A stretch of 64,000 nucleotides of DNA, taken from Escherichia coli (lineage in GTDB: Bacteria; Pseudomonadota; Gammaproteobacteria; Enterobacterales; Enterobacteriaceae). A program made the translations under genes and the position numbers. Below the pieces are notes generated by a model. The model saw nothing but the letters and a program-made list of their open reading frames with translations, searched no databases and was not told the DNA's origin. The stretch lies in the NCBI RefSeq assembly GCF_965641715.1, contig NZ_OZ282455.1, one strand, 5' to 3'. Below are positions 1-63,892 of the stretch, piece by piece (the first letter of the stretch is position 1; every line of letters begins with the position of its first letter).

Positions 1-79
1 TAAGGCCGCGCAGCCCGAGCCTCAGCCGCAACCGCCGGAGGGGGAGGATTACGGGTTTTCAGACGATATCCCGTTCTGA
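1..79 (+). CDS. ssb: single-stranded DNA-binding protein, 3' end only (partial)
   Basis: Frame ending at the TGA at 77-79 translates ...PEPQPQPPEGEDYGFSDDIPF*, the Pro/Gln-rich tail and acidic DDIPF tip typical of SSB C-termini; position matches plasmid leading-region order ssb-psiB-psiA. Confidence 0.6.
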   Translation, partial: KAAQPEPQPQPPEGEDYGFSDDIPF

Positions 80-97
80 CTGGCCTGACTGTGATAA

Positions 98-370
<273 letters not shown>

Positions 371-428
371 GAGAGGTGCCGGACGCGCGAACGTCCGGCA
401 GGACATAAGCAATTATAAGGGGATGATT

Positions 429-2387
429 ATGCCTGTAACGAAGTGTGAACCAGAAACCACCCGCAAAGCAAGCCGTAAATCTGCAAAAACGCAGGAAACA
501 GTCCTGTCTGCCCTGCTGGCGCAGACGGAGGAAGTGAGCGTGCCGCTGGCCTCACTGATTAAGTCACCGCTGAATGTGCGCACGGTGCCGTATTCTGCGG
601 AGTCCGTCAGCGAACTGGCAGGGTCCATTCAGGGCGTCGGACTGCTGCAGAATCTGGTCGTGCATACCCTGCCTGGTGAGCGCTACGGTGTCGCCGCAGG
701 TGGTCGCAGACTGGCAGCACTCAATATGCTGGCTGAGCGTGGAATCATTCCGGCTGACTGGCCTGTCCGCGTGAAAATTATTCCGCAGGAACTGGCGACG
801 GCTGCATCGATGACCGAGAACGGTCATCGCCGGGATATGCACCCTGCCGAACAGATTGCCGGATTCCGCGCAATGGCGCAGGAAGGCAAAACAGCGGCAC
901 AAATCGGTGATTTGCTGGGCTATTCACCCCGCCACGTTCAGCGAATGCTGAAACTGGCAGACCTTGCGCCTGTCATCCTTGATGCGCTGGCAGAAGACCG
1001 CATCACCACAGAGCACTGTCAGGCGCTGGCGCTGGAGAACGACACCGCGCGTCAGGTGCAGGTGTTTGAAGCTGCCTGTCAGTCGGGATGGGGCGGAAAA
1101 CCGGAAGTACAGACCATTCGTCGTCTGGTGACCGAAAGTGAAGTGGCGGTGGCGGGGAACACTAAATTCCGCTTCGTGGGGGCTGATGCCTTCTCGCCAG
1201 ATGAACTGCGCACTGATTTGTTCAGCGACGATGAGGGTGGCTATGTGGACTGTGTTGCGCTCGATGCCGCCCTGCTGGAAAAACTCCAGGCTGTTGCAGA
1301 GTACCTTCGGGAAGCTGAGGGCTGGGGATGGTGTGCCGGACGCATGGAGGCCGTTGGTGAGTGCCGTGAAGATGCCCAGGCATACCGCAACCTGCCGCAG
1401 CCGGAAGCAGTGCTGACGGAGGCGGAAGAAGAACGCCTGAACGAACTGATGGCACGTTACGACGCACTGGAAAACCAGTGTGAGGAATCTGACCTGCTGG
1501 AAGCAGAAATGAAGCTGATGCGCTGCATGGCGAAGGTCAGAGCGTGGACGCCGGAGATGCGTGCCGGAAGCGGTGTGGTGGTGTCCTGGCGTTATGGCAA
1601 CGTGTGTGTCCAGCGTGGTGTGCAGTTGCGCAGCGAGGATGACGTGGCTGACGACGCTGACCGCACGGAACAGATGCAGGAGAAAGCGTCAGTGGAGGAA
1701 ATCAGTCTGCCACTGCTGACGAAAATGTCTTCCGAACGCACGCTGGCAGTCCAGGCGGCACTCATGCAGCAACCGGACAAATCTCTGGCACTGCTGGCAT
1801 GGACGCTCTGCCTGAATGTGTTTGGCAGCGGGGCGTACAGTAGTCCCGCCAGAATTTACCTGGAATGTGGGCATTACTCACTGACCAGCGCTGCGCCGTC
1901 AGGGAAGGAAGGTACCGCATTCATGGCGCTGATGGCAGAGCACTTTCGCCTTGCTGCCCTGCTGCCGGATGAATGGGAACGGGACATGACGACGTTCCTG
2001 TCACTCAGCCAGGAGGTGCTGTTATCCCTGCTCAGTTTCTGCACTGCATGCAGCATCCACGGCGTTCAGACCCGTGAGTGTGGTCACACGTCACGCAGTC
2101 CGCTGGACTCGCTGGAAACCGCCATCGGCTTTCACATGCGCGACTGGTGGCAGCCGACAAAAGCAAACTTCTTCGGACACCTGAAAAAGCCGCAGATTAT
2201 CGCAGCCCTGAATGAGGCAGGACTGTCCGGTGCCGCACGGGACGCGGAGAAGATGAAGAAAGGTGATGCGGCTGAACATGCAGAGCACCATATGAAAGAC
2301 AACCGCTGGGTTCCAGGCTGGATGTGTGCACCACATCCACAGACAGATGCCACTGAACGCACCGATAACCTGGCTGATGCCGCCTGA
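429..2387 (+). CDS. ParB-like nuclease domain protein (leading-region, 652 aa)
   Basis: Long ORF; N-terminal region has ParB/Srx-like signature (LQNLVVH...GERY.VAAGGRRLAAL); AAGGGG RBS 6 nt before the ATG at 429; lies upstream of psiB as in IncF/IncI leading regions. Confidence 0.8.
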   Translation: MPVTKCEPETTRKASRKSAKTQETVLSALLAQTEEVSVPLASLIKSPLNVRTVPYSAESVSELAGSIQGVGLLQNLVVHTLPGERYGVAAGGRRLAALNMLAERGIIPADWPVRVKIIPQELATAASMTENGHRRDMHPAEQIAGFRAMAQEGKTAAQIGDLLGYSPRHVQRMLKLADLAPVILDALAEDRITTEHCQALALENDTARQVQVFEAACQSGWGGKPEVQTIRRLVTESEVAVAGNTKFRFVGADAFSPDELRTDLFSDDEGGYVDCVALDAALLEKLQAVAEYLREAEGWGWCAGRMEAVGECREDAQAYRNLPQPEAVLTEAEEERLNELMARYDALENQCEESDLLEAEMKLMRCMAKVRAWTPEMRAGSGVVVSWRYGNVCVQRGVQLRSEDDVADDADRTEQMQEKASVEEISLPLLTKMSSERTLAVQAALMQQPDKSLALLAWTLCLNVFGSGAYSSPARIYLECGHYSLTSAAPSGKEGTAFMALMAEHFRLAALLPDEWERDMTTFLSLSQEVLLSLLSFCTACSIHGVQTRECGHTSRSPLDSLETAIGFHMRDWWQPTKANFFGHLKKPQIIAALNEAGLSGAARDAEKMKKGDAAEHAEHHMKDNRWVPGWMCAPHPQTDATERTDNLADAA

Positions 2388-2441
2388 TGAACAACCACAC
2401 CGCCCCGCCGGAGACGGGGCGGCAGCAAGGGAGATACCGTG

Positions 2442-2876
2442 ATGAAAACTGAACTGACCCTGAATGCCCTGCAGTCCATGAACGCACAGGAATATGAAGA
2501 TATCCGTGCTGCGGGAAGCGATATGCGCCGTAATCTCACTCACGAGGTGATGCGTGAAGTGGACGCACCGGCTAACTGGATGATGAATGGCGAGTATGGC
2601 AGTGAGTTCGGGGGCTTTTTCCCCGTCCAGGTTCGTTTCACGCCAGCCCACGAACGTTTCCACCTGGCATTATGTTCGCCGGGAGACGTCTCTCAGCTCT
2701 GGATGCTGGTTCTGGTGAATTGTGGTGGACAGCCTTTCGCCGTCGTTCAGGTGCAACATATCTTCACGCCTGTCGCTATCAGTCACACGCTGGCGCTTGC
2801 CGCGACACTTGATGCGCAGGGGTACAGTGTTAACGACATCATCCATATCCTGATGGCAGAAGGAGGTCAGGCATGA
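2442..2876 (+). CDS. psiB: plasmid SOS inhibition protein PsiB
   Basis: 144-aa product [27 protein letters not shown]...ILMAEGGQA matches my recollection of PsiB along its length; stop overlaps psiA start. Confidence 0.9.
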
Positions 2877-3592
2877 GCGCACGTTCACGGGCACTGATCC
2901 CCCTCAGCGCAGAGCAACAGGCCGCCATGCAGGCTGTGGCTGTCACCGAACAACGTCGTCGTCAGGGACGCACACTTTCAGCATGGCCTTATGCCAGCGC
3001 TTTCTTTCGCTGCCTGAATGGCAGTCGCCGGATTTCGCTGACCGATCTCCGCTTTTTTGCTCCTGCGCTGACGAAGGAGGAATTTCATGGCAACCGTCTC
3101 CTGTGGCTGGCTGCCGTGGATAAACTGATTGAAAGTTTTGGTGAAGTCTGTGTTCTTCCCCTGCCATCCGATGCGGGGCATCGTCTGTTCCCGTCCGTTC
3201 CTTTTCGTGAAGGTGAGCGGCGTCGTCAGAAAACCACGCTGACAGAGCAGAAATACAGCCGCCAGCGGGAACGTGAGGCAGAACGACGGGAACTGGAATA
3301 CCAGACATGTTTTGCTCAGGCGCAGATTGACCTTGCGTTTCATACTCCCGCCACGGTCGGAAGCTGGTTGTCCCGCTGGTCTGGTGTTGTTGAGGAGCAT
3401 GATCTGGAAACGATTTTCTGGGGGTGGTGCGGGCGTTTTCCATCACTGTCATCATTTGACCGGTTTTTCTGGCAGGAGGAACCACTCTGGCGGCTGATTT
3501 TTGAAGCCGGTGAGGCCGGTCGTGGTGCACCGGTACAGGTACGTGCACTTGAGCAGTGGATGATCCCGAACAAGCTGGAGAACGCAATATGA
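2873..3592 (+). CDS. psiA: plasmid SOS inhibition protein PsiA
   Basis: 239-aa ORF immediately after psiB with ATGA overlap; size and position as in F/IncI psiB-psiA operon. Confidence 0.8.
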
Positions 3593-4185
3593 TGAAATCA
3601 GACGAACAATATCACGTTCCCGTGTGGATGCGACCTCTGTTGCCGTTGCTCTGCAATACCGGTGGTAATGATCCGGAGGAACTGCTGAATGATACAGAAA
3701 CCACCGCCAGTGCGAATATTGTCCGTTATGTACTGATAGTTGCAGTGCGGTCGCAGATTGATCTGCTGCAGCTACTGTACAGGAAAGGACTGTTGCGCAC
3801 AGAGATACCAGGTGGCTTTTCACCGGAAGAAGCGCAGGAACTCCTGGATAATCTGGTGCGCAGCCATATCAGCAAGGCGCTGTCGGGTGAGCGAATGGCA
3901 GCCCGTGACAGAAATGCCGATCTGACCTGGATTCGCCAGCAACTGGTCGATGCCGCCTGGTTTGTCCGTGCCACACTGGAAGCGCATGGGATGGGCGTCG
4001 GAAATGAGAGTCCCTCTGCTCCGCCGGAGACAATGCCGGACATACAGACACGGGAACTGGTTATGTTGATCAAGCGACTGGCATCATCGCTGAAAGCGGT
4101 GAAACCCGACAGTAGCGTGGTGCGTGAAGCGCAGGACTGGCTGTGCGACAGAAAACTTGTGGATATCACAGATATTCTCCGGTGA
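3589..4185 (+). CDS. hypothetical protein, translationally coupled to psiA
   Basis: ORF whose ATG overlaps the psiA stop (ATGATG); no family recognised. Confidence 0.55.
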   Translation: MMKSDEQYHVPVWMRPLLPLLCNTGGNDPEELLNDTETTASANIVRYVLIVAVRSQIDLLQLLYRKGLLRTEIPGGFSPEEAQELLDNLVRSHISKALSGERMAARDRNADLTWIRQQLVDAAWFVRATLEAHGMGVGNESPSAPPETMPDIQTRELVMLIKRLASSLKAVKPDSSVVREAQDWLCDRKLVDITDILR

Positions 4186-4199
4186 ACCAGACATGTATA

Positions 4200-4647
4200 T
4201 TTTACGCAGGGACACGCCGATCATGATCGTTTCATATCAGGGGTGGTCTGGAGGTCATGCGGCGTGTCCTCTGCACTCGCCGGAATAAGGAAGTCGCCGG
4301 CGGCTCCGCTTTTACCCGGCCATGCGGGGCATGGCCTTGTGGGTTTTCAGCTCTGTGGCCTCAGCGTCGTGTGCGGGCTGTGCCGTGCCTCCATCTTAGC
4401 CGGGCTGGCAGGGATGCAAGGGTACGCTTCGCCGCTGCGGTCACCCGGTCCCTCCTTCCCGTCTGCCGTGATTTTCCGGTCGTTCACCCGCTCAGATTTC
4501 GCGGTCTCACCCTCCAACTCCCGCCAGCCGTGTGCGTCAGGCTGCGGCTTCCCTTGCGCCCTGTGCATCCCCGCCTTATCGCCCGGCTTTTATGGAGGCA
4601 CGGCACCGCCCGGTGCCGCAGAACATGTGACTATGGAGGATTCGGGA
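4200..4647. promoter_or_regulatory. GC-rich structured leader upstream of ardA; candidate single-strand promoter region
   Basis: Roughly 450 bp of GC-rich sequence with no convincing coding signal (it only appears as an in-frame extension of the ardA ORF); inference from the known ssDNA-promoter arrangement upstream of leading-region genes. Confidence 0.3.
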
Positions 4648-5148
4648 ATGTCTGTTGTTGCACCTGCTGTATACGTTGGAACCTGGCACAAATACAACTG
4701 TGGAAGTATCGCCGGACGCTGGTTTGACCTGACCACGTTTGATGATGAGCGCGACTTTTTCGCCGCCTGCCGTGCTCTTCACCAGGATGAAGCCGATCCT
4801 GAACTGATGTTTCAGGATTATGAGGGATTCCCGGGGAATATGGCCTCTGAATGCCATATCAACTGGGCCTGGGTTGAAGGCTTCCGCCGGGCACGGGATG
4901 AAGGCTGCGAAGAGGCTTATCGTCTCTGGGTGGATGATACCGGTGAGACGGATTTTGACACCTTCCGCGATGCCTGGTGGGGCGAGGCTGACAGTGAGTA
5001 GGCTTTTGCGGTTGAGTTCGTCAGTGATACCGGCCTGCTGGCTGACGTGCCGGAGACGGTGGCGCTCTATTTTGACTATGAGGCGTATGCGCGGGATTTA
5101 TTCCTGGACTCCTTCACCTTTATTGACGGTCATGTGTTCCGTCGGTGA
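4648..5148 (+). pseudogene. ardA: antirestriction protein ArdA interrupted by an in-frame amber codon at codon 118 (4999-5001)
   Basis: [33 protein letters not shown]... matches remembered ArdA; ORF stops at TAG 4999-5001 but the same frame continues AFAVEFVSDTGLLADVPETVALYFDYEAYARDLFLDSFTFIDGHVFRR* to 5148, giving the 166-aa ArdA length if the TAG were CAG. Confidence 0.8.
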
Positions 5149-5496
5149 TTTACTCCCCCGCTCCGGCGGGGGTATGGCCTGCCAGGCCGCCGGAAAACCC
5201 TGGCAGGCTTACGCCTGCCTGAAATGCAGGAGGGCCGCGCCTGCGGCGCTGCCCTTCCTGCCCGTCATGGTGTGAGGCATTTTTCTGTTATGTCGTTTCT
5301 GTTGTTCTGATTTCCGGAGGCGGGGACACCTTCGGCTCCCGGCTGCCTGGCGGCATCCGGTCGTCAGGCCCGACTCCGACAGGCAGCTGCTGGCGCACCC
5401 GCCAGTCTCCGCCGAACCCGCTGGCGCGGTTTCGGGCTGCCGCTACGGTCCGATGTCTGAAAAACCAGGCTTGCAGCGACCGTTCCGGTCGCGCCG

Positions 5497-5860
5497 CCCC
5501 TGTCGCGCCGGAAACGGCGCTCCCTGCACACCTGACGGTGTGTAAGGCCACTGCGCCTGATGGCGCAGTCAACCCTTCCGCCGCCACCCCTGCGGCCTGT
5601 TTCCCGCTGTGGACTTTCCGGGGGCTGGAGTAACCACATCCCGTTTCAGCAGTCTAGGGGAAGATATACCGTCCACAAAATTTTTAGCCATAAACCCGGC
5701 AAAAAATTTTGCGTCCGCCCCCGGACAGCTGCCCCGTGACGTGGTGACGGACGCCCCATCGGAAAGGTCCACTGCGGGGAGAAACCCCGAAGAAGTGGAC
5801 GGCAGAAGGGGCTTTCGCCCCTCCGGGGAGCAACCGGTCGGCCCGGCGACCTGATTCAGC
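5497..5860 (+). repeat. Frpo-like structured repeat, copy 1 (candidate ssDNA promoter)
   Basis: About 360 bp highly similar to 8372-8725; contains inverted repeats CACACC..GGTGTG and CTGCGCC..GGCGCAG; sits directly upstream of an ORF start. Confidence 0.6.
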
Positions 5861-5876
5861 AGAAGGAGACGTTTTC

Positions 5877-6311
5877 ATGACAGTCAGCAGCACGATTTCC
5901 GTTTTTTGCCGCGACGGGGTGTTCCGTACCGTTTACTGCCACCTGCACGGGGAGCCGACCTGGAACGGTCGCATCCTGCATACCCACTATGCCACCGGTC
6001 AGCAGGCCGAAGCCCTGGTTGAACACGGTGATATCCGTTGCCTCGGTCCCCGTTGCGACAAACCCGCCGGGCATACGCTTCAGAACCCGGTGGACGGTGT
6101 GACGGCTTATTACGGACGTGACAGTGGTTTCCGGATGGACAGTGAGGCGCGTGAGTACCGTTCTTTCAGGGAGGCTATTGCCACTGAAAGCACTGAAGAG
6201 GTGCGCTTCCATTATGTGTTCATCGACGGCTACTGGAAGGTGATGTACCGCACGCCGGAAGGCTGGAAGATGAAAGCGCTCGCGCTGGCACTGCGTCGCT
6301 GTCCGAAATGA
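5877..6311 (+). CDS. hypothetical protein (144 aa) downstream of Frpo-like repeat 1
   Basis: Clean ORF with GGAGA RBS; no family recognised. Confidence 0.6.
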   Translation: MTVSSTISVFCRDGVFRTVYCHLHGEPTWNGRILHTHYATGQQAEALVEHGDIRCLGPRCDKPAGHTLQNPVDGVTAYYGRDSGFRMDSEAREYRSFREAIATESTEEVRFHYVFIDGYWKVMYRTPEGWKMKALALALRRCPK

Positions 6312-6317
6312 AAAAAA

Positions 6318-6338
6318 GGCAGGGCGATAAACCCTGCC
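6318..6338 (+). terminator. hairpin after orf144 (weak terminator candidate)
   Basis: GGCAGGG-CGATAAA-CCCTGCC stem-loop preceded by an A-run; no strong T-tract on plus strand. Confidence 0.3.
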
Positions 6339-6404
6339 TCTCTCCGCCGGCGCTTCCCCGCCAGGAAGTCCGGCATCTCAATCACTATCTATGGAGATTA
6401 TGCC

Positions 6405-6671
6405 ATGAGACCATCAATTATCTTCGCAACCGCCGAGTATGTAAAGCGTCTGCGTGAAGAGTGCCTGCGGGAGAATAAACCCCTGCACCGCCATACCCGC
6501 TTCAGACGTCAGGAGCTGGCACAGGATGAGATTAACCCGGACGTCCTGGCGATGAGCGGCCATATCGCCAGACGCTGCAGTGAGCAGAAGCGGGTGCGTA
6601 TCCCCGCTATGAAAGTCAGCGAATGGGGCCACCTGCTCCGCGCGCTTGAAATTGAGCGGGTCTGCCACTGA
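6405..6671 (+). CDS. hypothetical protein (88 aa)
   Basis: ORF preceded by GGAGA; basic, no family recognised. Confidence 0.4.
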   Translation: MRPSIIFATAEYVKRLREECLRENKPLHRHTRFRRQELAQDEINPDVLAMSGHIARRCSEQKRVRIPAMKVSEWGHLLRALEIERVCH

Positions 6672-6735
6672 TTAACCCTTGCCGTCTGCCTGTGCAGGCG
6701 GCAGGATACGTTCAGACATCTCACCAGGAGGAACC

Positions 6736-7662
6736 GTGAGTAAGAAGAAAACCACCACGACGCCCACGCCGCATGATGCCGCGTTCCGGTCGTTCCTGGC
6801 GAATCCCGACGTCGCCAGAGATTTTCTGGAACTGCATCTTCCGGCGGAGTACCGGCAGTTGTGCGACCTGTCCACGCTGAAGCTGGAACCCGCCACCTTT
6901 GTTGAGCCGGACCTGCATCAGTACGCCAGCGATATCCTCTGGAGTGTGAAAACCACCGGGGGTGAAGATGGCTATGTTTATACGCTCATCGAGCACCAGA
7001 GCACCGAAAATCTGTACATGCCTTTCCGCATGTTACGTTACAGTGTGGCGGCGATGCAGAGACATCTGGAGCAGCACAAAACGTTGCCACTGGTCATTCC
7101 GGTGCTGTTCTATCACGGTGAGCGCAGCCCGTACCCGTACAGCATGAACTGGCTGGACTGTTTTGAGAATCCGGCGCTTGCGGCTAAAATATACACAAAG
7201 CCGTTTCCGCTGGTTGATATCACTGTCGTTGATGACAATGAAATCATGAACCATCGCCGGATGGCCGCACTGACGCTGCTGATGAAGCATATCCGCCATC
7301 GTGACATGATGGAGCTGCTGGACAAACTCCCGCAGGTCATGGTGGAAATTTCAGACGAGCAGGTGCGTGTTCTGATTCATTACATCGTTAACGCAGGGGA
7401 CTCTGTATCACCGGAATTTATGCGGGCGCTGGCTGAGCGTCTGCCGCAGCATGAGGATAAACTGATGACTATCGCAGAACGTCTTGAGCAAAAAGGTCGC
7501 CAGGAAGGCAGGATGGAAGGACGCATGGAAGGACGCATGGAAGGAGCGCTTGAAAAAGCCCTGGCTATTGCGTGCCAGCTTCAGAAAATGGGGATGACGC
7601 CGGAGCAGATTAAGCAGGCTACCGGACTTTCCGATGACGAACTGAAGAAAATCACTCACTGA
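6736..7662 (+). CDS. Rpn-family (YhgA-like, PD-(D/E)XK transposase_31) recombination-promoting nuclease
   Basis: HDAAFRSFL...LIEHQS...PLVIPVLFYHGE motif block typical of Rpn/YhgA-like proteins; GTG start after AGGAGG chosen; C-terminal tail carries GRMEG tandem repeat. Confidence 0.75.
   Translation: MSKKKTTTTPTPHDAAFRSFLANPDVARDFLELHLPAEYRQLCDLSTLKLEPATFVEPDLHQYASDILWSVKTTGGEDGYVYTLIEHQSTENLYMPFRMLRYSVAAMQRHLEQHKTLPLVIPVLFYHGERSPYPYSMNWLDCFENPALAAKIYTKPFPLVDITVVDDNEIMNHRRMAALTLLMKHIRHRDMMELLDKLPQVMVEISDEQVRVLIHYIVNAGDSVSPEFMRALAERLPQHEDKLMTIAERLEQKGRQEGRMEGRMEGRMEGALEKALAIACQLQKMGMTPEQIKQATGLSDDELKKITH
7495..7547 (+). repeat. 15-bp tandem repeat inside rpn encoding GRQEG-RMEG-RMEG-RMEG
   Basis: ggacgcatggaagga repeated in tandem; seen directly. 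Confidence 0.8.
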
Positions 7663-7671
7663 GTAAACATC

Positions 7672-7702
7672 ACAGCCCGGCAAAATGCCGGGCTTTTTTG
7701 TC
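7672..7702 (+). terminator. rho-independent terminator after rpn
   Basis: AGCCCGGC-AAAAT-GCCGGGCT hairpin followed by TTTTTTG. Confidence 0.75.
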
Positions 7703-7723
7703 AGCAGGAGCAGAGCAAACAGC

Positions 7724-7882
7724 ATGACGATTGCAGAACGTCTTATTCAAAAAGGCGCACTTGAAGTGGCGCGGGAAATAGCCTGCCGGCTGCGGGATAT
7801 GGGCTGGACGCCGGAACGGATTCAGGAGGCAACCGGACTTTCCGGTGAAGAACTGAAAAAGCTGTTTCCTGATGAGCAGTAG
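7724..7882 (+). CDS. standalone RpnS-like small protein (paralogue of the Rpn C-terminal tail)
   Basis: 52-aa product MTIAERLIQKG...TPERIQEATGLSGEELKK aligns with Rpn residues from the internal Met (MTIAERLEQKG...TPEQIKQATGLSDDELKK); DNA also visibly similar. Confidence 0.5.
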   Translation: MTIAERLIQKGALEVAREIACRLRDMGWTPERIQEATGLSGEELKKLFPDEQ

Positions 7883-7912
7883 CCTGGCATTCAGCCAGGC
7901 TGTGAATCACGC

Positions 7913-8164
7913 TCACACATCCTCTGCCGTTTCCCCCAGTTCATTTTCCAGTCGCCTGATGATATCTGCCTTACGCATCCCCTGCATGTGAGGCAGCAGG
8001 TCACGGACTGAAAGTGCCTGGGTGGTCCTCCAGACGGTGACGTCCACCTGTTCCGCATTTTCCCAGGCGTGCCATGTTCTCTGCGTCACGCCAAATTCTC
8101 TGGCCGCTTTTTCGCGTGACCAGAGCATGCTTTTTCGCCAGATTCGCAGTTCCCAGCCGGTCAT
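7913..8164 (-). CDS. XRE-type helix-turn-helix transcriptional regulator
   Basis: 83-aa ORF with WSREKAAREFGVTQRTWHAWEN helix-turn-helix-like segment; one of only two leading-region protein genes on the minus strand. Confidence 0.55.
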   Translation of the reverse strand: MTGWELRIWRKSMLWSREKAAREFGVTQRTWHAWENAEQVDVTVWRTTQALSVRDLLPHMQGMRKADIIRRLENELGETAEDV

Positions 8165-8179
8165 AAAACACCTTTAAAA

Positions 8180-8266
8180 AAGTGAAAAAACTTCACTTTA
8201 TTTTATCATCATAATCACCAAATTAACGCGATAAATAAGTGTGAAAAAGTGAAGAAATTTCACTTT
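8180..8266. promoter_or_regulatory. two palindromic operator-like sites (AGTGAA-N4/5-TTCACT) in the promoter region of the HTH gene
   Basis: Perfect inverted repeats at about 8181-8198 and 8248-8264 in an AT-rich region immediately upstream of the minus-strand HTH gene. Confidence 0.5.
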
Positions 8267-8371
8267 TTTTGCTTGTAAATGTCGTGCGGTTTTCTCTGTT
8301 TTCACCTGTGCGGGAGTGGTGTGCCAGTGACCACCACATGCCATTGTTGTGCCGTCGTTTTTCTTCAGTCG

Positions 8372-8725
8372 CGCCGTATGCGGCGCTCCCTGCACACCTT
8401 ACGGTGTGTAAGGCCACTGCGCCTGATGGCGCAGCTGTCTCTGCCTGTCTGCCGCCGCACTGCGGCCTGTTCTCCGCAGACGGACTTTCCGGGGGTACAT
8501 ACATGACCACATCCCGTTTCAGTCGTCCAGGGGAGAGATGTACCAGCCACAAAACTTTTTGCCGCAGGCGTCAAAAACTTTTGCGTCTGCCCCCGGACAA
8601 CTGCCCCGTGACGTGGTGAGCGTCCCCCGTCGGAAAGGTCCACTGCGGGGAAATCCCCGAAGACCCGGACGGCAGAAGGAGCTTCGCTCCTCCGGGAAAT
8701 GACCTGGCTGACCCGGCAGTCGTGA
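8372..8725 (+). repeat. Frpo-like structured repeat, copy 2 (candidate ssDNA promoter)
   Basis: Paralogous to 5497-5860 including the GCGCTCCCTGCACACCT.ACGGTGTGTAAGGCCACTGCGCCTGATGGCGCAG core; ends just before an ORF start. Confidence 0.6.
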
Positions 8726-8740
8726 CGATGAGGAGACAAT

Positions 8741-9592
8741 GTGATGAATCAGACTTTACCCACTGCTGACCTGAATACTGCCGGCACGACAGATGTTATT
8801 CCGTCTGTGGCTATCGACCGCATCATCGCGCAGCGTAACGAAGGTATTGCACTGTTCATGCAGGCGATGGAATGCCTGGCGACAGCGCGCAAGATTCTGC
8901 TCGATGCGTCAGGTGATATTTTTCTTTACGGGTTTGAAGACTGCGTGACTGATTCCGTTCGTCGCATAGATAAACCGGAAGAAGCGAAAAGGAATATCAC
9001 CCGTCTTGCCGACCGGAAAATCTGGGATCGCCTGATGACAGATACGGGCATGTACACCTTCATGAGTTCATGCCAGCGTGATGAGTGGAACAGCCAGCTG
9101 ATGAGCGACACCTGTCCTGAAATCACCCTGGACAATGTACTGGCAACATTCCGCCATCTGAATGCCTGCAAGATGCAGACATTTGAACAGGGACTGATTG
9201 ATGTCTACCGGAAATTGTCATGGGATTACAGAACCAATAATCCCTGCCGTCTGGGTAAGAAAATCATTATTGAAAACCTGCTGTACCGCTGGAGTAACGG
9301 GCGTGTGACGCTGGACTGCAGCGGACGGGAGGCACTGGATGACCTGGTACGTCCGTTTTATCTGCTGGAGGGGCGCAACGTTCCTGACTTCAGGAACAGT
9401 ATCGGGGCGCAGTATGGTGAATTTCTCGGGAACGGCGACAATGTCGGTAAGCTGTTAGAAGGGGAATATTTTACGGTGCGTGGCTACCAGAAAGGGACCG
9501 TACACATTGTCTTTAAGCGTTCTGACCTTGTTGAAAAACTGAATGATATTATTGCACGGCATTATCCAGGTGCATTGCCGCCACGAGTCTGA
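8741..9592 (+). CDS. hypothetical protein (283 aa) downstream of Frpo-like repeat 2
   Basis: ORF with GAGGAG RBS; no family confidently recognised. Confidence 0.6.
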   Translation: MMNQTLPTADLNTAGTTDVIPSVAIDRIIAQRNEGIALFMQAMECLATARKILLDASGDIFLYGFEDCVTDSVRRIDKPEEAKRNITRLADRKIWDRLMTDTGMYTFMSSCQRDEWNSQLMSDTCPEITLDNVLATFRHLNACKMQTFEQGLIDVYRKLSWDYRTNNPCRLGKKIIIENLLYRWSNGRVTLDCSGREALDDLVRPFYLLEGRNVPDFRNSIGAQYGEFLGNGDNVGKLLEGEYFTVRGYQKGTVHIVFKRSDLVEKLNDIIARHYPGALPPRV

Positions 9593-9602
9593 TTAAACAG
9601 AA

Positions 9603-9636
9603 AAGCCCTGGTATTTATGCCGGGGCTTTTTTTTCT
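9603..9636 (+). terminator. rho-independent terminator after orf283
   Basis: GCCCTGG..CCGGGGC hairpin followed by TTTTTTTT. Confidence 0.7.
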
Positions 9637-9677
9637 GTAATCATCATAATCTCAGAACACGATGTGACATTGTCACA

Positions 9678-10019
9678 TCAATTGTTGTTCATATCGATGC
9701 CATCTTTCCTGCCTGAATCTGTCTTTTTAGGTGCTGTTTTAGAGGAAGAACGGCGGGATGGTTTTTTCGATTCTGCTTCCCGAATAATGTCACGAAGTGC
9801 CTTCTCTCCTACTTCATACCCTGCATTTTTGAGCGTGTCACGAACATCTGCCAGTGTATAACCCTTTGTCCTTACCAGGACAATAATGTCATCACGAATG
9901 GCATCAAGAAAATCACGCAATGTTTTCCGTTGAGCGGTGAGATCTGGCAATTCCGATAAAGCAGCTTTTGCCAGCTGGATGTCATCATCTGAGTAAAATT
10001 TTTTAGAAGCCATTGGCAC
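9678..10019 (-). CDS. hypothetical protein with basic Ser/Lys-rich C-terminal tail
   Basis: 113-aa ORF from the six-frame track, divergent from nikA across oriT; no family recognised. Confidence 0.45.
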   Translation of the reverse strand: MPMASKKFYSDDDIQLAKAALSELPDLTAQRKTLRDFLDAIRDDIIVLVRTKGYTLADVRDTLKNAGYEVGEKALRDIIREAESKKPSRRSSSKTAPKKTDSGRKDGIDMNNN

Positions 10020-10149
10020 TTTCTCTCCGTTTCATGTTGAAGTCTGATTTTATCATCAAAAACTGACTCCTGGCAGGGCTGCGCCCTGCCTCTGCCGTCT
10101 GCATAAGACTATGATGCACAAAAATAACAGGCTATAATGGCCTGAAAAA

Positions 10150-10246
10150 CGGGACAGGATGTGCAATTGTAATACCGTCACACGCGACGCTATTACAATT
10201 GCCATCTGGTCAGGGCTTCGCCCCGACACCCCGTAAGGAGCCTGAA
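10150..10246. other. oriT: origin of transfer (oriT) region
   Basis: Imperfect inverted repeat AATTGTAATACCGTCACACGCGACGCTATTACAATTG immediately upstream of nikA; position and sequence consistent with my recollection of R64 oriT; nick site not resolved. Confidence 0.6.
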
Positions 10247-10579
10247 GTGAGTGATAGTGCGGTAAGAAAGAAAAGTGAGGTACGGCAAAAGACAGTTGTC
10301 AGGACACTCAGATTCTCTCCTGTTGAGGATGAAACCATCAGGAAAAAAGCTGAAGATTCCGGACTTACTGTATCTGCTTACATCCGAAATGCAGCACTGA
10401 ATAAGCGAATTAACTCCCGTACAGATGATGCTTTTCTGAAGGAGTTAATGAGACTGGGAAGGATGCAGAAGCATCTGTTTGTTCAGGGAAAAAGAACCGG
10501 TGACAAGGAATACGCAGAAGTGCTTGTTGCCATAACCGAACTTACAAATACATTGCGTAAACAGTTAATGGAAGGTTGA
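10247..10579 (+). CDS. nikA: relaxosome accessory protein NikA (110 aa)
   Basis: GTG start after AAGGAG gives 110 aa (VSDSAVRKKSEVRQKTVVRTLRFSPVEDE...), the size I recall for R64 NikA; directly upstream of the relaxase. Confidence 0.8.
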   Translation: MSDSAVRKKSEVRQKTVVRTLRFSPVEDETIRKKAEDSGLTVSAYIRNAALNKRINSRTDDAFLKELMRLGRMQKHLFVQGKRTGDKEYAEVLVAITELTNTLRKQLMEG

Positions 10580-10589
10580 GGATTCTCCG

Positions 10590-13289
10590 GTGAATGCAGT
10601 CATTCCAAAAAAGAGAAGGGACGGCAAGTCTTCGTTCGAAGACCTGGTATCCTACGTCTCTGTCCGGGATGACATGACCGATGAGGAACTGGATTTATCT
10701 TCTTCTTCGCAGGCTGAACAACCGCACCGAAGCCGTTTCAGTCGCCTTGTTGATTATGCGACACGTCTTCGAAATGAGTCATTCGTGGCGCTGGTTGATG
10801 TCATGAAGGACGGCTGCGAATGGGTCAACTTTTATGGTGTCACCTGCTTTCATAACTGTACTTCTCTTGAAACTGCCGCTGCAGATATGGAGTACATTGC
10901 CCGGCAGGCACACTATGCAAAAGATGACACTGATCCTGTTTTTCACTACATTCTTTCCTGGCAGTCACATGAAAGCCCGCGTCCGGAACAGATTTATGAC
11001 AGTGTACGTCATACGCTGAAATCACTCGGCCTTGCCGACCATCAGTATGTCTCTGCCGTGCATACTGATACAGATAATCTGCACGTCCATGTGGCTGTTA
11101 ACCGGGTACACCCTGAAACGGGTTATCTGAACCGGTTATCCTGGAGTCAGGAAAAACTCAGTCGTGCCTGCCGTGAGCTTGAACTGAAGCATGGTTTTGC
11201 TCCGGATAACGGTTGCTGGGTCCATGCACCGGGAAATCGTATCGTTCGCAAAACCGCCGTTGAACGTGATCGCCAGAACGCGTGGACACGCGGGAAAAAA
11301 CAAACTTTTCGCGAGTATGTCGCGCAGACAGCGGTCGCTGGTTTACGCAGTGAACCTGTAAATGACTGGTTATCCCTGCATCGTCGTCTTGCGGAAGATG
11401 GTCTGTACCTGTCTCAGATGGACGGAAAATTTCTGGTGATGGATGGCTGGGATCGCAACAGGGAAGGTGTACAGCTTGACTCGTTTGGTCCCTCCTGGTG
11501 TGCAGAAAAACTCATGAAAAAAATGGGTGACTACACGCCAGTACCAAAAGACATTTTCAGCCAGGTGGAAGCACCAGGACGCTATAATCCGCACTTCATT
11601 GCCGCTGATGTTCGCCCGGAAAAAATCGCTGAAACAGAAAGTCTGCAGCAGTATGCCTGTCGTCATCTTGGAGAACGTCTGCCGGAAATGGCACGGGAAG
11701 GACGGCTGGAAAACTGCCAAGCTATTCACCGCACACTGGCTGAAGCGGGATTATGGATGCGTGTTCAGCATGGTCACCTGGTTATCTGTGACGGTTATGA
11801 TCATAACCAGACTCCCGTTCGTGCTGACAGCGTATGGTCGCTGCTGACGCTCGACAATGTGAATCAACTCGATGGTGGCTGGCAGCCTGTACCAACAGAT
11901 ATTTTCCGCCAGGTTACGCCAACAGAACGCTTCCGTGGTCGTCGTATGGAGAGCTGTCCTGCGACCGATAAAGAATGGCACCGTATGCGTACAGGCACGG
12001 GGCCGCAGGGGGCTATCAAACGCGAACTGTTTTCTGACAAAGAAAGTCTGTGGGGATACAGCATCAGCCATTGTAGCCCTCAGATTGAAGAAATGATCAC
12101 ACAGGGTGAGTTTACCTGGCAGCGTTGTCATGAGCTGTTTGCACAACAGGGACTGATGCTACAGAAACAACATCACGGGCTTGTTGTCGTTGATGCCTTT
12201 AATCATGAGCAAACGCCGGTGAAGGCCAGCAGCATTCATCCTGATCTGACACTGGGGCGTGCAGAGCCACAGGCCGGACCTTTTGTGAGTGCCCCAGCAG
12301 ATTTGTTTGACAGGGTGCAACCTGAAAGTCGCTATAACCCGGAGCTGGCTGTCAGTGACAGGTACGGGGTCAGCAGTAAACGTGACCCAATGCTGCGCCG
12401 GCAGCGACGTAAAGCCAGAGCTGAGGCCCGTGCTGACCTGCGTGCCCGCTATCTGGCATGGCGTGAACAATGGCGTAAACCAGATCTGCGTTATGGGGAA
12501 CGTTGTCGGGAAATTCATCAGGCATGCCGTCTGCGGAAGTCACACATTCGTGCGCAGTACGATGATCCGGCATTACGTAAGCTGCATTATCACATTGCAG
12601 AAGTTCAGCGAATGCAGGCATTGATCAGGCTGAAAGAAGACATCAGGGATGAGCGACAGAAACTTATTGCTGACGGGAAGTGGTATCCACCCTCTTACCG
12701 TCAGTGGGTCGAAACTCAGGCTGCTCAGGGAGACAGGGCTGCTGTATCGCAGCTGAGAGGCTGGGATTATCGCGATCGCCGTAAAGACAGGTCACGCACA
12801 ACGACGACAGACCGCTGTGTCGTGCTTTGTGAACCGGGCGGAACGCCGGTATACGGTAATACCGGTGATCTCGAGGCCCGTCTGCAGAAGAACGGGAGTG
12901 TTCGTTTCCGTGACCGTCGGACGGGAGAGTTTGTCTGTACGGATTATGGTGACAGGGTTGTTTTCCGTAATCACCATGACCGCAATGCGCTGGCAGATAA
13001 ACTGGATTTGATTGCACCGGTATTATTCGGGCGTGATCCTCGCATGGGTTTTGAACCAGAAGGAAACGACAAACAATTTAACCAGGTCTTTGCTGAAATG
13101 GTTGCCTGGCATAATGTGACAGGCCGTACCGGTCACGAAGACTACAGGATTACGCGACCGGACGTGGATCATCACCGTGAAGGAAGTGAACGCTACTACC
13201 GCGATTATATCGCGGCGAACAGCAACGATGACGCATCACTGCCTCCGCCGGAGCAGGATAAACGCTGGGAACCGCCTTCTCCAGGTTAA
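10590..13289 (+). CDS. nikB: relaxase NikB (MobA/MobL-type, 899 aa)
   Basis: 899-aa ORF with histidine-triad-like motif HTDTDNLHVHVAVNRV; length matches recalled R64 NikB. Confidence 0.85.
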   Translation: MNAVIPKKRRDGKSSFEDLVSYVSVRDDMTDEELDLSSSSQAEQPHRSRFSRLVDYATRLRNESFVALVDVMKDGCEWVNFYGVTCFHNCTSLETAAADMEYIARQAHYAKDDTDPVFHYILSWQSHESPRPEQIYDSVRHTLKSLGLADHQYVSAVHTDTDNLHVHVAVNRVHPETGYLNRLSWSQEKLSRACRELELKHGFAPDNGCWVHAPGNRIVRKTAVERDRQNAWTRGKKQTFREYVAQTAVAGLRSEPVNDWLSLHRRLAEDGLYLSQMDGKFLVMDGWDRNREGVQLDSFGPSWCAEKLMKKMGDYTPVPKDIFSQVEAPGRYNPHFIAADVRPEKIAETESLQQYACRHLGERLPEMAREGRLENCQAIHRTLAEAGLWMRVQHGHLVICDGYDHNQTPVRADSVWSLLTLDNVNQLDGGWQPVPTDIFRQVTPTERFRGRRMESCPATDKEWHRMRTGTGPQGAIKRELFSDKESLWGYSISHCSPQIEEMITQGEFTWQRCHELFAQQGLMLQKQHHGLVVVDAFNHEQTPVKASSIHPDLTLGRAEPQAGPFVSAPADLFDRVQPESRYNPELAVSDRYGVSSKRDPMLRRQRRKARAEARADLRARYLAWREQWRKPDLRYGERCREIHQACRLRKSHIRAQYDDPALRKLHYHIAEVQRMQALIRLKEDIRDERQKLIADGKWYPPSYRQWVETQAAQGDRAAVSQLRGWDYRDRRKDRSRTTTTDRCVVLCEPGGTPVYGNTGDLEARLQKNGSVRFRDRRTGEFVCTDYGDRVVFRNHHDRNALADKLDLIAPVLFGRDPRMGFEPEGNDKQFNQVFAEMVAWHNVTGRTGHEDYRITRPDVDHHREGSERYYRDYIAANSNDDASLPPPEQDKRWEPPSPG

Positions 13290-63230: not shown

Positions 63231-63365
63231 TTAACGCTCCGCGCCGAAGCGATCCAGGCATGATGCTTCTGCTTTGTGGCGTTCGAACATGCTGGTCCAT
63301 ATGCACGAAACGGTGTCTGACCCTCGTCCAGACAATCCGCAGTTCTGACGAACATATGAACAAAT
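63231..63365. repeat. conserved ~135-bp intergenic element, copy C (upstream of the LuxR-type gene)
   Basis: See copy A. Confidence 0.6.
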
Positions 63366-63439
63366 ATGCTCTTGTAGAGGCTGTTGTTACACAATTGGCG
63401 GGTTGTGTAACAAATGGTTTTATCATCTAAGAATTATTC

Positions 63440-63600
63440 TATTTACGATCGAATGATCTACAAAATGATTTTTTAAAGGTTATTTAGATCGTTTAATTGC
63501 ATTAAAACAGAATATTATTCTGTTGGGTAGATCGGTTGTAAGATAAATGATCGTGAGTAGGACAAAAGTCGATCTTTTAATCCAAAAGAAAGATCTAAAG
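63440..63600. promoter_or_regulatory. AT-rich region with a cluster of GATC-containing short repeats
   Basis: At least seven GATC sites, mostly as (T)AGATC(G/T), within about 160 bp. Confidence 0.3.
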
Positions 63601-63892
63601 CAGAAAAATCTGCTTTTAAAAATAGATTTTATTTTTTTGACGCAGGTCAAGATTAACTTATTAGAGGTATCAGTGAGGAGGCACTGGAAGAGAAGAGATC
63701 GTTGTAATGCTTTTCAAATTAACGTAAAGCGGGTATATTTCGGCTGTTATTAGCTGTGCAGAGGGTGGCACTCTGTGGAGCAAAGCGGCGAAAGCCGGAC
63801 GGCAGAATGCGCCATAAGGCATTCAGGAGAGATGGCATGTACGGACAGTAAGTCAGAAGACTGAAGATGTTCCGGAAGCCATAAAAGGAAAA

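Follow-up and report, generated by a model that had tools for sequence, protein, structure and literature searches.

Sequence comparison resolves YgaA, encoded after psiA in I-complex plasmids, into three modules with phage and plasmid relatives

What does the gene directly after psiA in I-complex conjugative plasmids encode, and does it share in the work of its neighbors? We addressed this question in a 64,000-nucleotide (nt) stretch of Escherichia coli DNA (contig NZ_OZ282455.1 of assembly GCF_965641715.1; the window), the start of which lies inside the leading region of such a plasmid. A preliminary description, made from the sequence alone, had placed an open reading frame (ORF) here, at 3589-4185, with its start codon overlapping the stop codon of psiA. 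By sequence and position, this ORF is ygaA of the R64 nomenclature, the cistron after psiA in the leading-region operon, which in I-complex plasmids (incompatibility groups IncI1/I-gamma/K/B/O/Z) is ssb/ykfF/yfhA/psiB/psiA/ygaA. Judged by which of its parts are matched by which relatives, its product YgaA is a mosaic of three independently shuffled modules, which we call N (residues 1-70), M (residues 72-135), and C (residues 151-198). YgaA of R64 and pESBL (O3K_25907, "Hp15"; WP_021547626.1) is the same gene at the same place after psiA, 597 nt long as in pESBL, and shows no differences; the DNA is also 100% identical to the copy in pRKI3099a and in other plasmids. The name ygaA is used in the annotation of pN583, and one database entry is named YgaA; elsewhere, the product is a "hypothetical protein," and one GenBank record labels the gene "eaa." The name clashes with that of the chromosomal ygaA, which is norR, a sigma-54 regulator, and some of the "ygaA" literature concerns norR.

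The overlap with psiA is borne out by the sequence. The coding sequence (3589-4185, + strand) holds 198 codons followed by a TGA (4183-4185), as supported by ORF translation, annotation in matching plasmids, and selection on the codons; the extent first reported stands, whereas the reported length of 199 amino acids (aa) had counted the stop codon. The ygaA start (ATG, 3589-3591) and the psiA stop (TGA, 3590-3592) share the tetranucleotide ATGA (3589-3592, + strand), which is identical in divergent alleles. A Shine-Dalgarno motif, GGAG (3577-3580, + strand), lies 8 nt 5' of the ATG within the psiA 3' end and is kept in pN583 and p5312.29. A second in-frame ATG is found at 3592. We favor the ATG at 3589 over an upstream GTG at 3556 because gp43 of phage N15 aligns with YgaA from residue 1.

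We then asked whether the ORF is more than chance. Frame, length, and the psiA junction are unchanged in two alleles that are 94-95% identical in DNA (pN583, IncI-gamma/K1; p5312.29, IncK2/Z). Substitutions in these two alleles fall 9/2/16 and 10/5/20 over the three codon positions, with the third position dominant, and the ratio of nonsynonymous to synonymous substitution rates (dN/dS) from the allele comparison is 0.25-0.43 for ygaA, 0.06-0.19 for psiA and psiB, and ~0.2 for yfhA. Since the gene is also spread over 1,722 plasmids (see below), these features argue that the ORF is not fortuitous, and the substitution pattern marks ygaA as a real protein-coding gene under purifying selection. 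An untranslated ORF or decaying pseudogene whose overlap with psiA is incidental is highly improbable in our view. Its N terminus is homologous with that of N15 gp43 from residue 1, its start context is conserved, and its modules fold confidently in AlphaFold2, as well as showing the third-position bias and dN/dS given above. Such a reading could draw on the lack of any experimental protein evidence that we could find and on the truncated or chimeric versions that are common in databases, but most truncated entries are assembly fragments or frameshift chimeras.

The modular composition became apparent from the relatives of YgaA. A word-indexed protein search returned only near-identical plasmid copies and assembly chimeras. 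An exhaustive phmmer search returned 242 relatives, and these match different parts of the protein. When the 209 proteins retrieved by then were re-scored with phmmer, 75 had N only, 56 M only, 16 M and C, 4 N and C, and 15 all three modules, alongside other classes. The N module (3589-3798, + strand) is defined by the N15 gp43 match and alignment A5, and the M module (3802-3993, + strand) by alignment A6 with matches in phage PhiR5_1, Stx2a phages, and IncI2 plasmids. A Pro/Ser-rich flexible linker (residues 136-150; 3994-4038, + strand), variable in length and sequence among relatives, separates M from the C module (4039-4182, + strand), which is matched by PHROG profiles 660 and 924 and is common to the proteins P0088-P0092 and P0101.

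Each module carries its own conserved residues. In N, these are P11, W13, M14, N23-T-G-G-N27, E30, L32, D35, N43, R46, Q56, and L60; YgaA has every invariant position of alignment A5 and fits the ~70-aa pattern P-x-W-M ... N-T-G-G-N ... E-x-L-x-x-D ... N ... R ... Q ... L. In M, the conserved residues are PGGF, L85, L89-V90, H93-x-S-K-A-x-S-G-E101-x-M103, D111-L, W114-I, and A-A-W-F-V126. The motifs NTGGNxxEEL in N and LPGGFxxEEA in M raised the possibility of an internal duplication, which we rejected (hhalign probability 2.9% over 10 columns).

The preliminary description had found no recognisable family and had called for a homology or fold search. Its statement holds for curated libraries: matches in Pfam and NCBIfam were sub-threshold (ExsD_C, expectation value [E] 0.18; TilS_C, E 0.11), PADLOC gave 0 families, and searches of PDB sequences with the single sequence and with profiles (full-length, alignment A3; N, A5; M, A6) retrieved only designed helical repeats at E ~2. 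It does not hold for the modules, all three of which have clear phage or plasmid relatives. For the C-terminal end alone, there are two matches at the level of a module rather than of the whole protein: PHROG 660 pairs YgaA 151-198 with profile positions 146-193 of 193 (E 1.1e-7), and PHROG 924 pairs YgaA 79-198 with profile positions 156-267 of 267 (E 1.4e-6). Homology thus delivered the three-module mosaic; the fold search gave no informative neighbor, since the best Foldseek hits were at E 3 in PDB and E 0.05 in BFVD (N15 gp45) and none was interpretable. No Pfam or NCBIfam match to an anti-defence family (ArdA PF07275, KlcA/ArdB, Lar, or anti-CRISPRs) was found in these libraries, which are general and not dedicated to anti-defence, and no specific structural neighbor with an anti-defence fold appeared in PDB or BFVD. 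Likewise, Pfam, NCBIfam, PDB sequence and profile, and fold searches detected no enzyme family or catalytic fold.

The predicted structure agrees with separate units. AlphaFold2 run with a query-registered alignment returned an all-helical model with a predicted local distance difference test score (pLDDT) of 78 and a predicted template modeling score of 0.40, while the single-sequence model (pLDDT 48) was unusable. In the former, pLDDT is ~88-95 for N, ~86-93 for M, 40-48 for the linker, and ~70-76 for C; the model is one of three confident helical units joined by flexible linkers, in a mutual arrangement that is not confident. MAFFT alignment of trimmed module segments mis-placed N-module sequences onto M, and missing modules were then filled with query residues. 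The conserved polar positions (NTGGN, E30, D35, N43, R46, and Q56 in N; the H93-x-SKA-x-SGE-x-M loop in M) may mark interaction surfaces, though a part in chemistry is conceivable for them.

Where else do the modules occur? The N-module family comprises >370 clusters, mostly standalone ~70-aa proteins without annotation. One context is a Mu-like early region with Gam and GemA, where N is flanked by HI_1489_N and DUF5131 genes; another is the early operon of N15-like phage-plasmids, after a Q-like antiterminator. N15 gp43 (NP_046938) is among the closest comparisons: its residues 1-83 contain an N module 52% identical to that of YgaA from residue 1 (E 7e-24), and the loci of gp43 and P0101 are, like that of ygaA, tightly packed early operons with start/stop overlaps. 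Unlike YgaA, gp43 is without an M module, has an unrelated C-terminal stretch of 110 residues, and is encoded on a phage-plasmid rather than a conjugative plasmid. P0101, from an N15-like element, joins N to C. We noted that the early operon holding this N+C relative (L011-L013, 4486-12450) also encodes an RNase_T+Lar_restr_allev fusion, a YubE homolog, N6_N4 and C5 DNA methyltransferases, and a DUF4406 protein. YubE is a leading-region family of F, and by analogy the content of this operon resembles that of a plasmid leading region or anti-defence island.

In mosaic proteins from the exo-xis region of Stx2a phages and PhiR5_1, the middle portion is 56-61% identical to the M module. The PhiR5_1 protein (56% identity) is annotated "Ea22," and the Stx2a-phage protein is 291 aa long and reads Ead/Ea22 + M + DUF551. 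Among 109 proteins of alignment A1, DUF551 was found in 14, Ead_Ea22 in five, and a dATP/dGTP pyrophosphohydrolase domain in two. Lambdoid proteins of the Ea22 slot are non-essential mosaic accessory proteins (PMC7093339), and the Ea22-slot/DUF551 mosaics share with YgaA, besides the M module, an early, non-essential, and modular character and flexible Pro-rich linkers. They differ in having their own N terminus (PF13935) and C terminus (PF04448); Pfam finds neither the Ead/Ea22 N-terminal domain nor the DUF551 C-terminal domain in YgaA. A pro-lysogenic function like that of Ea22 was considered and rejected: the experimentally studied Ea22 proteins (lambda, Phi24B) are without an M module, and their phenotype is therefore not transferable to YgaA. 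BLASTP of Phi24B vb_24B_6c against YgaA gave E 0.55, that is, no similarity. A nuclear magnetic resonance structure of the lambda Ea22 C-terminal domain has been reported; no PDB sequence was matched by YgaA or its profiles.

Outside phages, ~519 further PLSDB records match the M module at 60%-80% identity, and those examined are IncI2-type plasmids of ~60 kb with M alone. In the IncI2 plasmid pHNY2 (L006, 5869-6189), for example, M is the sole module of a 106-aa protein, encoded beside hicAB at a distance of 3.5 kb from mobC and the relaxase gene. Lambdoid prophages encode proteins in their nin regions (P0088-P0092) in which the C module is combined with M. The phage settings of the module relatives are thus the early operon of N15, the exo-xis and nin regions of lambdoid phages, and the Mu-like early region.

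Neither the gene nor its overlap with psiA is new. In the ssi3 operon, Benz et al. (bioRxiv/PNAS) place psiB, psiA, ygaA, and ygbA downstream, ygaA being the last named gene but one; they also remark that their psiA deletion takes 3 nt of ygaA and leaves a start codon, which shows that they were aware of the overlap. Within the literature searched, our additions are the anatomy in three modules and the relationships with N15 gp43, Ea22-slot/DUF551 mosaics, and proteins of Mu-like and nin regions.

We next considered when YgaA might be made. In the identical plasmid pRKI3099a, nikA/nikB lie ~6.66 kb 3' of ygaA on the + strand, which puts ygaA within the first ~7 kb entering the recipient, pointing at the origin of transfer (oriT), an orientation shared with psiB, psiA, and ardA. 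If leading-region genes are taken as those in the first ~10 kb with the transferred strand (T-strand) as template, ygaA is one of them. Transcription towards oriT is the orientation required for transcription from the incoming T-strand. psiB (2442-2876, + strand; PF06290, E 8.9e-57; NF010255) and psiA (2873-3592, + strand; PF06952, E 1.4e-41; NF010258, E 3.9e-113) likewise overlap by a 4-nt ATGA, so that psiB, psiA, and ygaA run head to tail, and a scan of the + strand from the psiA end through ygaA (3592-4185) found no terminator-like site. In pESBL, six leading-region operons have mapped single-stranded DNA (ssDNA) promoters and are induced up to ~500-fold within 15 min in transconjugants; the induced genes include psiB (PMC12672017). 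The earlier proposal of a likely co-expression with psiB-psiA at establishment is therefore backed both by gene anatomy and by published operon-level induction (PMC12672017; Benz et al.).

Taken together, these data lead us to a reading that we hold at a probability of roughly one-half, the most likely of those considered: YgaA is a co-expressed, psiA-coupled early recipient factor that binds host proteins. An upstream single-strand promoter would drive transcription of ygaA along with psiB-psiA on the incoming single strand, ribosomes just finishing psiA would translate it, and YgaA would appear in the recipient within minutes of entry. There, it would act as a non-enzymatic adaptor or inhibitor on one or more host proteins and serve an accessory function, conditional in nature, that aids establishment, takeover of the host, or anti-defence. 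Early action on the host is known for other products of this operon. One of them, PsiB, acts on RecA. YfjB/HerB, the F counterpart of the yfhA product, reprograms host transcription (PMC13370423). By position, YgaA falls in one class with F YfjB/HerB, ArdA, KlcA, and orphan methyltransferases, that of leading-region products with ssDNA-promoter control and early host action, both predicted for YgaA; it is not homologous to these establishment factors and has no detected anti-defence or DNA-binding domain. By its position and its composition, YgaA belongs both with leading-region early genes and with phage-type mosaic accessory proteins.

Several observations weigh against this early-factor reading. 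We found no direct evidence for YgaA expression, a binding partner, or a phenotype. The non-enzymatic character is argued from absence, and the M-module loop, in which a His is invariant and a Ser, a Lys, and a Glu are nearly so, could support functional chemistry. Contacts within a module are all that the structure model can inform, because missing modules had been filled with the query's own sequence. Selection on ygaA (dN/dS as above) is weaker than on psiA and psiB. Transposon insertion sequencing of pESBL scored YgaA/Hp15 (63259-63855) as non-essential for maintenance and transfer with a probability of 1.00 (PMC4288162). A query spanning the psiA-ygaA junction matched 1,887 PLSDB plasmids, and the junction is intact in 1,705; ~180 of the 1,887 (~10%) are without ygaA yet typed as conjugative. 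Finally, in a C-module-deleted lineage (P0028, 32 contigs), a deletion of ~250 bp fuses codon ~144 to the downstream hairpin region. We also noted that this deletion removes part of the ardA-proximal element.

In the examined plasmids without the intact junction, such as p3R-2, the segment from codon 7 to ~50 nt past the stop codon is swapped for a 1.3-kb TnpB element. The replacing element is TnpB-only and of IS200/IS605 type, and it sits directly after psiA (L022, p3R-2, 4318-5645). ygaA is hence dispensable, being lost in about a tenth of related plasmids and neutral in laboratory matings, and because of the TnpB replacement, the C-module deletion, and the neutral insertions, any benefit that it brings should be conditional. 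Polar operon deletions increased transfer with one host strain but not with a second one (Benz et al.).

Could YgaA instead be a third SOS-inhibition component that acts with PsiB and PsiA on RecA, SSB, or ssDNA processing in the recipient? The preliminary description had hinted at an SOS or RecA link, which came from adjacency, and we found nothing in its support. The packing with psiA in one operon is tight, and the junction is kept in most plasmids with this psiA allele (1,705 of 1,887, as above). Moreover, we know of no established mechanism for PsiA, so that a partner not yet recognized is conceivable. Against this, a protein-level search of PLSDB turned up no homolog of YgaA or of its modules in thousands of F-like psiB-psiA plasmids; its matches were limited to I-complex (full length) and IncI2 (M module) plasmids and a few others. 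The phage loci of the module relatives are free of psi genes, and the ~10% of I-complex plasmids that lost ygaA retain psiB-psiA. YgaA shares operon and expression logic with PsiA and PsiB, and PsiA is similar in size, but there is no sequence or family relationship: YgaA matched neither PF06952 nor PF06290 at E up to 1, and Pfam, NCBIfam, and PDB sequence and profile searches revealed no similarity to any RecA- or SSB-interacting family. We consider an SOS role unlikely, well below the early-factor reading.

The distribution of ygaA bears on the main rival of the early-factor reading, in which YgaA is a phage-origin passenger ("moron") whose benefit is unrelated to conjugative establishment. 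By megablast, ygaA occurs at at least 90% identity in 1,722 PLSDB plasmids, and 1,692 of these cover at least 80% of the ORF. Almost all are I-complex plasmids of Enterobacteriaceae, their hosts being Escherichia, Salmonella, Shigella, and Klebsiella; conjugative typing applies to 1,623. A passenger might interfere with superinfecting phages or competing elements, or it might be a near-neutral hitch-hiker kept by linkage. Such an origin would suit three modules that are mainly phage-borne, the non-essential mosaic nature of Ea22-slot proteins, and a gene with selection relaxed relative to its neighbors, frequent natural losses, and neutral insertions. Against it, ~98% of the copies are intact across several Inc groups and genera, and dN/dS is well below 1. 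The exact N+M+C combination and the anatomy of psiA coupling are kept across alleles 6% divergent, and expression at entry is to be expected by default of a gene placed in a zygotically induced operon. We judge the passenger reading improbable on balance, though a more serious contender than an SOS role.

A bolder reading, which we offer tentatively and judge less likely than not, is that YgaA is a three-headed anti-defence or host-takeover protein assembled from an as yet unrecognized pool of small helical host-targeting modules. If this were so, plasmid leading regions would hold this pool in common with lambdoid, N15-like, and Mu-like phages, in which it would occupy early accessory regions. 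The host factors neutralized or recruited would differ from module to module and might include components of defence systems or proteins of replication or recombination; plasmids and phages would re-assort modules to suit the hosts that they invade, and the modules would define new counter-defence families.

In E. coli and Salmonella, IncI-complex plasmids are major carriers of extended-spectrum beta-lactamase, AmpC, and mcr genes. Current opinion regards the leading regions of these plasmids as establishment and anti-defence islands, yet most of the genes in them, including ygaA, are without an assigned function. A conserved hypothetical gene after psiA will not surprise a specialist, and should its function prove trivial, ygaA remains an ordinary gene of that kind; it is the modular link between phages and plasmids that gives experimental access. 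Three separable modules with phage relatives mean that each can be expressed alone in a search for host partners, and the natural knockouts (TnpB replacement and C-module deletion) permit comparative fitness tests. Through the modules, plasmid leading regions also join the exo-xis, nin, N15-early, and Mu-early regions, all of them poorly understood, in one shared gene pool.

Upstream of psiB, the window contains a DUF905 gene (131-370, + strand) and yfhA (429-2387, + strand), a ParB-like gene of the same operon with ParB_N and HTH_ParB domains, identified from its annotation as the counterpart of F yfjB/herB (PMC13370423). A strong G+C hairpin (CACCGCCCCGCCGGAGACGGGGCGGCA) at 2398-2424, in the 52-nt gap between yfhA and psiB, has no T-tract on the + strand; it could stabilize the RNA, be a site of its processing, or act as an intra-operon attenuator.

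Downstream, the gap between ygaA and ardA (4186-4647) is a conserved G+C-rich hairpin region. Its - strand, which is the template and hence the T-strand, folds as ssDNA with a predicted free energy of -114.5 kcal/mol (z = -5.3), and the region is conserved across plasmids. It bounds the ygaA transcription unit on the downstream side and is a likely single-strand promoter for ardA, the latter because it fits the class 2 ssDNA promoter that was mapped 5' of ardA in pESBL, where ardA has its own such promoter (PMC12672017). An Rfam scan of 1-12000 gave no matches. A 252-aa ORF at 4243-5001 is an artefact, a readthrough of the G+C-rich region into ardA. At codon 118 of 166 (4999-5001), ardA itself (4648-5148, + strand) has GAG changed to TAG, a premature amber stop, in comparison with the otherwise near-identical pRKI3099a and pN583; going by this codon, the ArdA antirestriction protein is probably truncated in this plasmid.

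A second structured element, unrelated in sequence to the ardA-proximal one, is present in two copies (5502-5756 and 8368-8628) with segments 87%-94% identical. The copies lie 5' of a ygcA-like gene (5877-6311) and of a DUF4942 gene (8741-9592), respectively, and are probably class 1 single-strand promoters of the ssi/Frpo type (ssi2 and ssi1). Between them, a 109-nt direct repeat with 75% identity (7541-7649 and 7752-7860) involves the 3' end of an Rpn-family gene (6679-7662) and the next small ORF (7685-7882), which looks like a duplicated Rpn C-terminal segment.

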